This document shows, in pieces, positions 2,448 to 18,276 of a stretch of 64,000 bases of DNA. The DNA is from Bacilli bacterium. Its GTDB lineage: Bacteria > Bacillota_I > Bacilli_A > RF39 > UBA660. The notes beneath the pieces are model-generated. The model saw nothing but the letters and a program-made list of their open reading frames with translations, made no database searches and was not told the origin of the DNA. Every line of letters begins with the position of its first letter. The stretch's first letter is position 1. Location: the NCBI GenBank assembly GCA_017438635.1, contig JAFRUZ010000016.1, positions 8,627 to 72,626 of the forward strand, read 5' to 3'. The translations under genes and the position numbers were made by a program.

Positions 2448-3002
2448 CTAATTATACTTACTCATTACTTTTTCAAAGTCTAACCTAATAAAATCATTTA
2501 AAATATCAACAGTCTTAGGCAAAAACTCATCTATACATTTAATATCATCTTTACTAAACTTACCCAAAACATAATCTTTAGTATCAATATCAGGATTATT
2601 AGAAATACCTATTCTAAATCTTCTGAATCTATTAGAGCCTAAAGAATCTTCAATATTTTGAAGACCATTATGTCCACCACTTGAACCAAATAATCTAAGT
2701 CTATAATCCAAAAAATCTAAATCAAGATCATCACTAATAACCAAAATATCAGAATAATCAACATCATAATAATTAGCAAAACTTTGAACTACCTCACCAG
2801 ATAAATTCATATAAGATTGAGGTTTAACAAGTAAAACCTTTTCACCATCAACAAATAAATCTGCATATAAACCATTGAATTTCTTCTTATCTATAGAAAC
2901 ACCCAATGATTTAGCAAAACTATCCAAAACAATAAATCCCATATTATGACGAGTATTTTCATATTCCTTACCAGGATTTCCCAATCCAATAATCAATTTC
3001 AT
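2448..3002 (-). CDS. pth: Peptidyl-tRNA hydrolase
   Basis: 184 aa; N-terminus MKLIIGLGNPGKEYENTRHNMGF and the GGHNGL motif are typical of Pth. Confidence 0.95.
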   Translation of the reverse strand: MKLIIGLGNPGKEYENTRHNMGFIVLDSFAKSLGVSIDKKKFNGLYADLFVDGEKVLLVKPQSYMNLSGEVVQSFANYYDVDYSDILVISDDLDLDFLDYRLRLFGSSGGHNGLQNIEDSLGSNRFRRFRIGISNNPDIDTKDYVLGKFSKDDIKCIDEFLPKTVDILNDFIRLDFEKVMSKYN

Positions 3003-14809: not shown

Positions 14810-15925
14810 TTAATAAGTTCTAATTGGTAAAATTAATGAAATTAGATCATCATTATCATCATTTTTTAATAAAATTGGCTTAATTTCTCCTACAAAAGTT
14901 AATATTACATCACTAGATTTTATAGTTTTTAAAGCATCCATCATATATTTAGCGCTAAAGCTGATTTTAATTTCATCAGAGCACTCAACATTAATCTTTT
15001 CTTCTACTTTTCCTATTTCTAGAGACATAGAAGTAACCTTCATAACACCATTTTTAATCTCTAATGTAACAATATTATTATCATTATCATCATTTAATAT
15101 ACTAGCTCTATCAACAATATTATAAAATTCATTAACATTTAACTTTAAATCAAATAATGAGTCAGTAGGAATCAAATTCTTAGTATTAGGATAAGTACCA
15201 TTAATAAGCCTAGATTGAAAAATAATATTATTAAACTTAAATATGATTTTATTAGAGAAAAAGTGTATTTCCATTGTTTCATCGGAAAAAGATAATAATT
15301 TCATAAGTTCATTTAAATTCTTACTTGGAACAATAATATCTATATCACTAGCAATTTTCTTATCAATTTTAAACTTTCTAAGAGATAATCTATATGAATC
15401 AGTAGCACTACATTCAAGTGAATCACCATTTATCTTAATATTAACACCAGTAAGAACAATTCTAGCTTCATCCATAGAACAAGCATAATTAGTTTGACTA
15501 ATCATAGTTTTAAATTCAGAAATCTTCATTTCTGCAAAAGTATCAGATAAATCAAGATTAATATCTGGATACTCTTTAGCATCTATTCCATTAAGATTAA
15601 ATTCACTATTATCTGTATAAATCATTATTTTATGTTCATCAATAGTATCAATGTTAATAAACTCAGCATCTAGTTTTCTAATAATATCAAGAATATATTT
15701 ACCTTTAATAACAGTGTTACCAGTATTCTTTATTATTAGATCTTCTCCTTTTTCAATAAATGTTTGAATAGTAATATCATTATCAGAAGCAGTAATGATT
15801 AGTTTATCTCTTAATAATTCAAATTTTATACCTGAAAGTATAGGTATAATATTCTTACTAGATAAAGCTTTAGATACATTATTAAGAGCTTCAAGTAAAA
15901 CAGTTCTTTTAATTTGTAATTTCAT
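14810..15925 (-). CDS. dnaN: DNA polymerase III beta sliding clamp
   Basis: 371 aa; MKLQIKRTVLLEALNNVSKALSSKNIIPILSGIKF...; position downstream of dnaA. Confidence 0.95.
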   Translation of the reverse strand: MKLQIKRTVLLEALNNVSKALSSKNIIPILSGIKFELLRDKLIITASDNDITIQTFIEKGEDLIIKNTGNTVIKGKYILDIIRKLDAEFINIDTIDEHKIMIYTDNSEFNLNGIDAKEYPDINLDLSDTFAEMKISEFKTMISQTNYACSMDEARIVLTGVNIKINGDSLECSATDSYRLSLRKFKIDKKIASDIDIIVPSKNLNELMKLLSFSDETMEIHFFSNKIIFKFNNIIFQSRLINGTYPNTKNLIPTDSLFDLKLNVNEFYNIVDRASILNDDNDNNIVTLEIKNGVMKVTSMSLEIGKVEEKINVECSDEIKISFSAKYMMDALKTIKSSDVILTFVGEIKPILLKNDDNDDLISLILPIRTY

Positions 15926-16070
15926 TTTAAAACCTTCTTTCTTATTTTTTTATATTTTTTATAGTAATTATATTAATACTGTTAACAATGTTAATAACCC
16001 TCAAAGTCCTTTATTTATAAGGAAAAAACAGCTTTTTTTATGTTAATTATTGTTAACAGTTTTAACAAAG
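15926..16070. promoter_or_regulatory. oriC: oriC module between dnaA and dnaN: variant DnaA-box 9-mers plus an AT-rich tract
   Basis: TGTTAACAA (15980-15988) directly abuts TGTTAATAA (15989-15997). TGTTAATTA lies at 16041-16049 and TGTTAACAG at 16051-16059. 15930-15975 is almost pure A/T and lies next to the dnaN start. Confidence 0.6.
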
Positions 16071-17456
16071 TTATGTTAATTGCTTTTCAATGTTGTTAAT
16101 TGCATCACTAAGATCCTTATTAATCTTCATCTCTCTTTCAATTTTATTACAAGCATGAATCACAGTAGCATGGTTCTTTCCAGAAAACTCAATACCTATT
16201 CTTTCAAATGATTCATCAGTAAGTTTTCTACATAAATACATAGCAACTTGCCTTGGTATTGCTAGATTTGGAGTTCTTTTCTTAGATTTCATATCCTCAA
16301 AAGAAATCTTATAAAAATTAGCAACACCTTTTTGAATTCTTCGAATATCGTTTTGATCAGTTACAATATCTTTTTTAGTAAAATCTTTTAAAGCCTCCAT
16401 AGCAAAGTCTAAAGTAATATCAGTAACCCCCATAATTGCTGAATAAGCGACAAGCCTTGTAATAGAACCTTCAAGTTGACGAACATCGTTTCCAACATTC
16501 GAAGCAATAAAAGAAATAACATCATCATTTATAACAATATCTTCTCTTTTTAACTTTTTCTTGATAATAGCCACCTTTAAATCATAATCTGGAGGGCTAA
16601 TATCAACTTGTAATCCCCATGCAAATCTAGTTCTAAGCCTATCTTCAAGGACTTTTAAATCTTCAGGAGATCTATCAGAAGATACAATTATTTGCTTGCT
16701 GTCATTGTATAAATTGTTAAAAGTGTGGAAAAATTCTTGTTGTGTCTTCTCTGCTCCTCCTAAAAACTGAATATCGTCAATTAATAAAACATCTACATTT
16801 CGATATTTATTTTTGAAAAACGTAGCATAATCTAAATTATTAAAACTACTACCCTTTCTTGCTAATCCAGTAAAATCATTCATAAAATCATCACTGGTTA
16901 CATATAAAACACGTTTATTAAACTTATTTTCTATATAATTGCCAATTGCATGCATTAAATGAGTCTTACCTAGGCCACTATTTCCATATATAAATAAAGG
17001 ATTATATAAAGTACCAGGGTTTTCTGCTACAGCAAGAGCAGCAGCTTGAGCAAATTTATTAGACTCCCCTACTACAAAACTTTCAAAAGTATAGTTTTTA
17101 TTTAAATTAGAATTATGATCTTTAACATAAGTAGATTGCACTTCATTTCCTTTTTCTACTAGGTTTTCAGTAGGATTACTATTATTATGTTCCAAAAAAT
17201 CTGCTACATTATCCTTTAATATATATTTAATGTTATCAACATTATTTGTTAATATCTCATTAAAACTATCAATAATTAAATCTTTATAATTTCTATCAAT
17301 GTGATTTTTATACCACATAATAGGTATTACCAGTCTTACACTAGTATCTTCGACCCCTATAAAATCAATATTTTTAAACCATGTGTCATAAGATAATGGG
17401 TCAACAATATTACTAATATTATTTAAAACTTTAGACCATAAAATTTTATCATCCAT
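16071..17456 (-). CDS. dnaA: Chromosomal replication initiator DnaA
   Basis: 461 aa; AAA+ motifs GNSGLGKTHLMHA and LLIDDIQFL; domain IV IPRQVAMYLCRKLT...GKNHATVIHA. Confidence 0.97.
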   Translation of the reverse strand: MDDKILWSKVLNNISNIVDPLSYDTWFKNIDFIGVEDTSVRLVIPIMWYKNHIDRNYKDLIIDSFNEILTNNVDNIKYILKDNVADFLEHNNSNPTENLVEKGNEVQSTYVKDHNSNLNKNYTFESFVVGESNKFAQAAALAVAENPGTLYNPLFIYGNSGLGKTHLMHAIGNYIENKFNKRVLYVTSDDFMNDFTGLARKGSSFNNLDYATFFKNKYRNVDVLLIDDIQFLGGAEKTQQEFFHTFNNLYNDSKQIIVSSDRSPEDLKVLEDRLRTRFAWGLQVDISPPDYDLKVAIIKKKLKREDIVINDDVISFIASNVGNDVRQLEGSITRLVAYSAIMGVTDITLDFAMEALKDFTKKDIVTDQNDIRRIQKGVANFYKISFEDMKSKKRTPNLAIPRQVAMYLCRKLTDESFERIGIEFSGKNHATVIHACNKIEREMKINKDLSDAINNIEKQLT

Positions 17457-17479
17457 AATACCATCTCCCCACTAAAAAT

Positions 17480-17508
17480 ATAGTATTTACCACTTAATTC
17501 AATTGTAA
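17480..17508 (-). promoter_or_regulatory. Candidate dnaA promoter (TTACAA - 17 nt - TACTAT)
   Basis: Reverse complement: -35 TTACAA (17503-17508), -10 TACTAT (17480-17485), RBS GGGGAG before ATG 17456. A variant DnaA box (17515-17523) sits just upstream. Confidence 0.45.
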
Positions 17509-17760
17509 TACATTTGTTAATAAATGAAAAGTTAAAAAAGAAATTAACAGACTTATTAACACAGTTATTAACATAGTTTTTCCTTTAGATACATACTATA
17601 AATGAGTTTTCAACAAATTTCAAGTAAAAAAGTTATAAACATATTCACAATTAACAAGTACTGTTAATAACAAAAAAAGTTAATAGATGTTAAAACAGTT
17701 AATAAATAAAAAATGTCCAATAAAAAAAAGAAAAATAATTAACAAATTTATGTTAATTAT
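17509..17760. promoter_or_regulatory. oriC: oriC module upstream of dnaA: dense cluster of TTATTAACA/TGTTAATAA 9-mers (putative divergent DnaA boxes)
   Basis: Perfect copies at 17515-17523 (TGTTAATAA), 17553-17561 and 17565-17573 (TTATTAACA), and 17662-17670 (TGTTAATAA). 8/9 copies at 17633-17641, 17697-17705, 17736-17744 and 17751-17759. There is no canonical TTATCCACA here. Confidence 0.65.
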
Positions 17761-17799
17761 TAATATATAAAAAAATAATAGAAAAATTATCAACAAAAT

Positions 17800-18276
17800 T
17801 TATTTAGTATTAAATATAAAAACATCCTCTCCTCCATCATTTTTAATAATGTAATTACCATTAGTATATTCATTTATTACATTTTTCCAAAATGAATAAG
17901 CAACAGGATTATTTGCCATAGGTTGAACTTCCCAAAAACCAGGAAACATATTAAAAATATCATGTGCTACTCTTTGTCCAATATGATTTCTTCTATATAT
18001 AGGCATAATCAAAAATTCTGCTACAGATTTACCTTCTTTATTAAATTTTAAGTTTTCATTAACAAGAACCATTCCTAAAAAATTTTTGTTATTTTTTATA
18101 AAATAAGCATTTCTATCATTATCAGAAAAATAATTATCAAACCAATTATATTCAAAAATACAATTTTCATTAATTTCATTATCAACATAAAATGATCCAT
18201 CATATAAAGCATATTGTAATAACCTATATAATTTATCTTTTTCTTCTAATTTAGCTTCAACTATTTCATAATCCAT
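17800..18276 (-). CDS. GNAT-family acetyltransferase
   Basis: 158 aa; the acetyl-CoA binding-like segment IMPIYRRNHIGQRVAHDIF; lies between dnaA and rpmH. Confidence 0.7.
   Translation of the reverse strand: MDYEIVEAKLEEKDKLYRLLQYALYDGSFYVDNEINENCIFEYNWFDNYFSDNDRNAYFIKNNKNFLGMVLVNENLKFNKEGKSVAEFLIMPIYRRNHIGQRVAHDIFNMFPGFWEVQPMANNPVAYSFWKNVINEYTNGNYIIKNDGGEDVFIFNTK

Follow-up and report, generated by a model that had tools for sequence, protein, structure and literature searches.

In the 64,000-nucleotide stretch analysed here (contig JAFRUZ010000016.1 of assembly GCA_017438635.1, positions 8,627 to 72,626 of the forward strand; hereafter the window), the replication initiator gene dnaA and the chromosomal origin oriC around it probably changed together. 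In this uncultured gut Bacilli genus, with genomes of about 1 Mb and a G+C content (GC) of 27%, DnaA differs from the usual protein at residues listed as reading DNA, and the predicted DnaA boxes differ from the canonical 9-mer TTATCCACA at the two central positions; from the sequences compared, a joint change of DnaA and its binding sites is given a probability of roughly 65%. The co-variation is real and recurs across bacterial groups, as a tendency and not as a strict code, and it most likely reflects a re-tuned reading of box position 6.

The protein is encoded on the minus strand by an open reading frame (ORF) of 461 amino acids (aa). It scored 510.5 bits against the DnaA equivalog model TIGR00362 (cut-off, 343.9), was matched by Pfam DnaA_N, Bac_DnaA, and Bac_DnaA_C (PF08299; 99.5 bits) in the four-domain architecture of DnaA, and was aligned with B. 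subtilis DnaA (8BTG) at E 4e-113 and, without gaps, with E. coli domain IV in PDB 1J1V at E 1e-19; 1J1V is reportedly the E. coli domain IV-box structure of Fujikawa 2003. The 0.9-Mb, 18-contig assembly gave this one DnaA match. By these matches the ORF is identified as a genuine DnaA, the predicted chromosomal replication initiator. The minus-strand translation of 16152-16181, near the C-terminus, is GKNHATVIHA, which was aligned without gaps to GGRDHTTVIHA in B. subtilis and GGRDHTTVLHA in E. coli (1J1V). In these alignments R394, E418, K427, N428, H429, A430, and H434 of the window protein correspond to R399, P423, R432, D433, H434, T435, and H439 of E. coli, whose numbering is used below unless a window residue is named. 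The positions concerned, those of single codons being taken from the 1J1V alignment, are:

16071-17456, minus strand: dnaA (TIGR00362, Pfam, and 8BTG matches; one match in the assembly).
16152-16181, minus strand: recognition segment, G426-A435, equivalent to E. coli G431-A440 (translation and 1J1V alignment).
16173-16175, minus strand: codon of N428, at the position of E. coli D433.
16167-16169, minus strand: codon of A430, at the position of E. coli T435.
16203-16205, minus strand: codon of E418, at the position of E. coli P423, the third changed contact residue (contacts as given in PMC2533591 and PMC7561715).
16275-16277, minus strand: codon of R394, at the position of the minor-groove reader R399 of E. 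coli; conserved.

In PMC2533591 and PMC7561715, base-specific contacts are listed, with citation of 1J1V, for R399, P423, D433, H434, T435, and H439. At the six positions listed there the window protein carries R, E, N, H, A, and H, that is, R399, H434, and H439 are kept, P423E, D433N, and T435A are changed, and the canonical contact set is incomplete. The initial annotation had translated the segment exactly and had noted the change of Asp to Asn and of the first Thr to Ala with both His residues kept; the contacts that it had named, Asp433, His434, Thr435, and His439, are all among the six. P423E had been overlooked, so that three and not two base-reading positions are altered.

The gene order is rpmH, GNAT, dnaA, dnaN, a 156-aa ORF, recF, and gyrB, and the minimum of the cumulative GC skew falls at 16-18 kb of the window. 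Box clusters flank dnaA at this turn, as in a bipartite oriC of the Bacillota type, the boxes being variant and not consensus. The predicted origin consists of the following parts:

15926-16070, no strand assigned: oriC part between dnaA and dnaN (145 bp), the equivalent of incC, with seven TTAACA-core box readings (dense TTAACA cluster; footprint conserved in the genus).
17457-17799, no strand assigned: oriC part upstream of dnaA (343 bp), in which nine boxes have a TTAACA core and two have a TCAACA core (richest cluster of exact TTATTAACA in the genome).
15980-15997, minus strand: abutting tandem box pair, TTATTAACA and TTGTTAACA, invariant in position in 15 species (spacer alignment).
15940-15979, minus strand: one G, NAN triplets (TAT TAA TAT AAT TAC TAT AAA ...), and an A/T tract, a candidate DnaA-trio-like and unwinding part (sequence, conservation, and the criteria of PMC8287927).
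17541-17573, plus strand: three head-to-tail boxes in a 12-bp register, AAATTAACA, TTATTAACA, and TTATTAACA (sequence).
14810-15925, minus strand: dnaN, the downstream limit of the origin (ORF list).

The two dnaA-flanking spacers (488 bp in total) hold 16 TTAACA cores; they contain no TCCACA, and the C6 box consensus TTATNCACA is not matched in them. The window contains 15 exact copies of TTATTAACA, where 4.7 would be expected, and the 400-bp bin richest in this 9-mer genome-wide is the spacer upstream of dnaA. Among 17,963 intervals of 350 bp covering the assembly (mean, 0.55 TTAACA; standard deviation, 0.79), the densest were the two dnaA spacers with nine cores each, and all twelve densest listed (6-9 cores) fell in these spacers. 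Because T, T, and A are preferred at the three bases before the core (55%, 81%, and 63%, respectively; 176 sites in 13 congeneric genomes), the box consensus was written as TTATTAACA, which is the canonical TTATCCACA with its flanks kept (T1 T2 A3 T4 and A7 C8 A9) and C5C6 replaced by T5A6.

When the dnaA-dnaN spacer was aligned over 15 species, the conserved blocks were the boxes: a pair of TTATTAACA and (A/T)T(A/G)TTAACA is fixed in position and is followed by a G, NAN triplets, the A/T tract, a ribosome-binding site, and dnaN. One site in the spacer alternates between TATTAACA and TATCAACA from species to species, which shows position 5 to be variable between T and C with A6 fixed. The basal unwinding system is described as a box with at most two mismatches, a spacer of 0-16 bp (peak at 10-13), and at least three NAN trios, commonly with a tandem box and with AT-rich DNA beyond the trios (PMC8287927). 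Here TTATTAACA has two mismatches, the second box together with the G makes a 10-bp spacer, and about ten NAN triplets follow, NAN runs alone being weak evidence in DNA of 24% GC. On the clusters, the kept flanks, the tandem pair before the trio and AT-rich module, and the conservation, we conclude that the TTATTAACA-type repeats are the putative DnaA boxes of this origin, to which this DnaA would bind. That the repeats serve another origin-binding protein, with DnaA acting through a few weak canonical-like sites, is scarcely credible: such sites with one mismatch do occur in the spacer (e.g., TTATCAACA at 17787), but the repeats retain the canonical pattern at positions 1-4 and 7-9, fill the tandem-box place directly before the trio and AT-rich module, and track DnaA residue changes in unrelated phyla, as described below.

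Two further observations were made. A 158-aa ORF at 17800-18276 on the dnaA strand, which an earlier note had taken for a GNAT acetyltransferase, divides the rpmH-dnaA spacer, and the boxes all lie on its dnaA side. At 2425-2447 of the window, in the spacer that directly follows the ORF 2448-3002 (minus strand), there is a pair of exact TTATTAACA boxes in facing orientation (GTTATTAACA-ATTTGT-GTTAATAAC), which may be a DnaA site away from oriC or a mere A/T hairpin terminator.

Throughout the genus, the DnaA substitutions and the TTATTAACA boxes form a fixed combination. Each of the 15 congeneric DnaAs has ..ERIG..GKNHATVIH(A/S), and a stretch of 52 residues around the segment is identical to the letter in 14 of them, the fifteenth also having GKNHATVIH, whereas the whole proteins are merely 78-90% identical. 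The non-coding DNA around dnaA contains 10-20 TTAACA cores in each of the 13 congeneric loci with full flanks, and a single copy of TCCACA was found among all 15 loci (in L014). Other genera of the same family have a P(K/R)IG..G(K/R)DH(T/S)T DnaA together with TCCACA boxes. In a sample of 61 genomes of the same order (GC 0.23-0.31), assigned to the order of the window since one genome is common to both samples (G205 = G023), nearly all have P.DH(T/S) and 5-19 TCCACA.

Base composition was considered next. At a GC of at most 0.30, genomes with canonical DnaA (n = 35) have 7.9 TCCACA (expected, 0.31) and 3.1 TTAACA (expected, 2.5), and genomes with Asn, His, and Ala at 433-435 (N-H-A; n = 26) have 0.19 TCCACA (expected, 0.25) and 10.7 TTAACA (expected, 2.6). 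Coincidence with AT drift, in which the amino-acid changes are neutral, the boxes went from CC to TA at 27% GC, and DnaA still prefers TTATCCACA, is highly improbable on these counts. The genome is indeed very AT-rich, with TTAACA seven times commoner than TCCACA genome-wide; yet the 35 canonical genomes, among which are sister genera of the family and order with a GC of 0.21-0.29, have retained about eight TCCACA with no excess of TTAACA, and AT drift alone thus fails to explain the TA boxes. In addition, the 15 species share the substitutions without variation, and the pair is met again in other phyla, there too with A6 boxes.

A scan for IG..F..NHATV with one genome per species returned at least 120 stretches, of which nearly all those listed (all but a handful) sit in DnaA domain IV. 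Among the matches listed were Solirubrobacterales, Ignavibacteria, Victivallales/Lentisphaerae, Planctomycetes, Oscillospiraceae, Saccharofermentanales-like Clostridia, other Bacilli, alphaproteobacterial metagenome-assembled genomes, and Patescibacteria. The occurrence of N-H-A in at least 120 species genomes of many phyla makes it a recurrent variant and not a singularity.

For comparison of residues with boxes, the box of a genome was called as the most significant T-NN-ACA hexamer with at least four copies and a Poisson p below 1e-3 against a first-order Markov expectation, and 127 genomes were informative. Genomes canonical at 433 and 435 had C6 in 67 cases and A6 in 3, and those variant there (nearly all N-H-A) had C6 in 19 and A6 in 38, so that A6 boxes are nearly confined to genomes changed at residue 433 or 435. 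By bases 5 and 6, the N-H-A genomes were TA in 29, CA in 7, TC in 4, and CC in 11, and canonical genomes were almost always CC; among the 70 informative canonical genomes no TTAACA-dominated origin with a D-H-T DnaA was found, and TA was never the top hexamer.

N-H-A goes together with A6 boxes independently in Ignavibacteria, in Clostridia, and in two other lineages of Bacilli. In the class that contains the Ignavibacteria matches, six genomes with SLQTIG..GGRNHATVIHAC (K423Q, D433N, S435A) have 10-15 T-TA-ACA, and 24 sisters have SLKTIG..GGRDHSTVIHAC with T-CC-ACA; the box consensus of the N-H-A clade is TT(A/G)TTAACA. One order of Clostridia has P.DHT members with TCCACA and, as their sister, an N-H-A clade with TTAACA (L186, L190, L191, and L193) or TCAACA (L104, L142, and L192) boxes. 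Within the order of the window itself, two further N-H-A lineages lie among canonical sisters: one (L211, L035, and L128) has TCAACA and TTAACA, and the other (L060) has TTAACA eight times, under the calling threshold. A Mycoplasmatales family with ..GNQAHSTIIAS, in which D433 is replaced by A, T, or S, has few upstream boxes, namely TTATTAACA, TTTTTAACA, and TTATT(T/G)ACA.

Several loci were noted beside these groups. In the Mycoplasmatales family (L282-L294; genetic code 4) the segment is IGKMVGNQAHSTIIAS or GQTHSSVIAS, with D433 and H439 lost; TTATTAACA-like boxes are few upstream of dnaA and, in four of five loci checked, absent downstream. Mycoplasmatales genomes of 1.3-2.2 Mb (G264, G274, and G273) contain two to four full or partial dnaA matches, and a 4.1-Mb genome with an N-H-A DnaA (G318) contains two domain IV matches. 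In L244 (G026:C1:1011000-1016000), from a class relative of 2.06 Mb, a divergent DnaA reads ..YVGVKEHTTAMRAI, with E at 433 and no IG; T-GC-ACA occurs nine times in the flanking DNA, and protein and box may here be a further pair of matched variants.

A looser explanation is that D433N and T435A merely ended discrimination at base pairs 5 and 6 and that AT pressure left TA boxes, with no preference for A6. It accords with the Clostridia N-H-A clade, which spans TA, CA, TC, and CC, with TA at GC 0.26-0.31 and CC at about 0.50, and with the Mycoplasmatales lacking D433, whose boxes are TTATT[A/T/G]ACA. Mixed origins would then be expected, yet purity at position 6 is higher in TA-type origins (0.90) than in canonical ones (0.63). 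N-H-A Ignavibacteria at GC 0.37-0.41 have 10-16 TA with 0-4 CA, 0-3 TC, and no CC among the commonest types, and L104 and L142 hold A6 (TCAACA; 7-11 CA) against base composition at GC 0.56-0.59. Relaxation alone is therefore considered unlikely.

Against a joint, re-tuned change of DnaA and its boxes stand the following points. Box calling presumed the T-NN-ACA template and covered 700 bp upstream and 400 bp downstream of dnaA. From a DnaA tree for which the recognition segment had been masked, about six independent contrasts were obtained, of which four agree, none oppose, and two are unchanged at position 6 (sign test, median p 0.125). The same N-H-A Clostridia clade also contains TTCACA (L046, L054, L187, and L189) and TCCACA (L183-185) origins; the TC-type boxes of L046 and L187 go with the same segment, L183-185 keep H439 and have TCCACA 9-10 times, and L183 mixes TCCACA, TTAACA, and TGCACA boxes, a mixture that the looser explanation would predict. 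Oscillospiraceae with NHATVL(S/A)S, in which H439 is lost (L032, L045, L089, L102, L105, L110, L125, and L150), use TTCCACA. TCAACA is the top box in three canonical genomes, and Bacteroidota keep D433. No box call was obtained within the region covered for 58 of 111 N-H-A loci, including those of Solirubrobacterales, alphaproteobacteria, and planctomycetes. The base assigned to each contact residue after 1J1V, moreover, is a putative assignment. The association between residues and box is thus consistent, yet it rests on few events.

No T-NN-ACA cluster was found near dnaA in the N-H-A loci of high-GC Solirubrobacterales, alphaproteobacteria, planctomycetes, Victivallales, and Patescibacteria, and these loci were regarded as uninformative, the origin lying elsewhere or the box being different. 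The Solirubrobacterales group (L039, L041, L053, L061, L065, and about 35 more; GC 0.67-0.70) has the DnaA segment GGRNHATVLHAC; the region covered around its dnaA, from 700 bp upstream to 400 bp downstream, contains no T-NN-ACA cluster.

Several simpler schemes were tried and set aside. A strict one-to-one code between residues and box was rejected by L183-185 and the Oscillospiraceae. Position 423 was rejected as the determinant, since Q, S, T, or A there occurs with D-H-T and TCCACA, and so was R/K432, since R and K are each seen with TA boxes. Bacteroidota did not qualify as a phylum in which N-H-A or D-H-A prevails: of 30 genomes sampled, 28 have K423 with D-H-[ST]. Oscillospirales were rejected as a clean sister test, the segment being too variable and the boxes too few; L302-L360 of that order show DHS, DHT, DHA, NHA, NHS, NHT, HHA, and HHT with small indels, and H439 is often Y, S, or A.

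These results bear unequally on what the initial annotation had proposed. An oriC 9-mer with its central CC turned to TA is borne out by the TTAACA cores and the lack of TCCACA in the dnaA-flanking spacers. The description of GRDHTTV as near-universal does not hold in the sense implied, given the spread of NHATV across phyla. Its suggested correlation of D/N and T/A states with the oriC 9-mer came out in part, A6 tracking the variants (38 against 3) but 19 variants keeping C6, and about four of six independent contrasts agreeing (p about 0.125); likewise, the proposed co-variation pair is fixed across the genus and recurs in Ignavibacteria and Clostridia, but is not one-to-one. The counter-example that it had named, a KNHATV-type DnaA with a canonical origin, does exist, since the single-DnaA genomes L183-185 and the Oscillospiraceae keep TCCACA. 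A specificity switch would be one-to-one, in both directions, and in independent lineages; the association found is one-sided.

For the joint change of DnaA and box, the following mechanism is proposed. Domain IV keeps the helix-turn-helix and R399, H434, and H439 and carries P423E, D433N, and T435A. On general chemical grounds, the amino group of cytosine would donate a hydrogen bond to Asp, adenine could be paired by Asn, and a thymine methyl group could be accommodated beside Ala. Loss of the Asp carboxylate and the Thr side chain would remove the demand for C:G at position 6, and a preference for A:T there would have been set in the window genus and in Ignavibacteria, where Asn could pair with adenine and Ala would leave space for the thymine methyl. 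Both the binding of the boxes by this DnaA and the atomic contacts are inferred. N433 and A435 look near-necessary for A6 boxes but not sufficient, because other N-H-A lineages use TCAACA, TTCACA, or TCCACA; in our reading, further residues tune the outcome elsewhere, and in the window genus the preference was re-set to A6. The broader proposal, that D433N/T435A is a convergent, repeatedly used switch that frees or re-aims the reading of position 6 from C to A, is tentative and, on present evidence, rather doubtful.

About five genomes with single changes give a hint, with exceptions, that residue 435 varies with base 6 and residue 433 with base 5: N-H-T (L218) goes with TTAT(G/A)CACA, and D-H-A (L303) and H-H-A (L319) go with TCAACA. 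In L218 (G219:C2:315504-319853), T423 and N433 are present with T435 kept, and the boxes are TTATGCACA (four), TTATACACA (three), and TTGTGCACA (two), with a purine at position 5 and C6 kept.

Compared with E. coli domain IV on the R1 box TTATCCACA (PDB 1J1V), the window has the same domain, with R399, H434, and H439 and box positions 1-4 and 7-9 in common, but differs in P423E, D433N, and T435A and in TA instead of CC at box positions 5-6. The bipartite oriC of B. subtilis (incA/B - dnaA - incC; PMC8287927) likewise has box clusters on both sides of dnaA, shares the gene order rpmH ... dnaA-dnaN-recF-gyrB, and contains a basal unwinding system (boxes 6/7, DnaA-trios, and AT-rich tract; Pelliciari 2021, PMC8287927) resembled here by the tandem pair, the 10-bp spacer, at least six NAN triplets, and the A/T tract. 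It differs in that the window boxes all carry A6, that a GNAT gene divides the rpmH-dnaA spacer, and that the window origin is a prediction from sequence.

The 9-mer itself has a precedent, since TTATTAACA was proposed as a putative DnaA box in Mycoplasma hominis, M. mobile, and M. arthritidis (Pereyre 2009, PMC2751442). Those boxes are identical to that of the window and lie upstream of dnaA in a low-GC relative of the same class, but there are one or two of them, none is between dnaA and dnaN, and a link to the protein was not noted; the Mycoplasmatales family that fits the M. hominis description has A, T, or S at 433 and A at 439, not N-H-A. Lineage-specific high-affinity boxes are described for Thermotoga maritima (AAACCTACCACC), Helicobacter pylori (TCATTCACA), and Mycobacterium/Streptomyces (TTGTCCACA), and that DnaA and its boxes co-evolved is an established statement (Wolanski 2015, PMC4285127). 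TTATTAACA is within two mismatches of TTATCCACA, like all boxes listed there except that of T. maritima, but every characterised 9-mer in that list keeps C6, and the window has A6. In the literature searched, which left most subscription journals outside, no description of the pairing of D433N/T435A with a box was found, and the 9-mer appeared only in the M. hominis work.

DnaA-box recognition is usually treated as nearly invariant, and origin finders and searches for basal unwinding systems start from TTATCCACA-like motifs. A defined pair of recognition-helix substitutions, in several phyla, goes with A where every characterised 9-mer box has C. As a rule of thumb for origins in uncultured lineages, T(T/C)AACA may be sought where DnaA reads N-H-A, with the caution that the residue state of DnaA alone does not determine the box. 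If the convergent switch is true, the origin box of uncultured lineages would be predictable from DnaA, and a swap of two residues could reprogram the specificity of the initiator.

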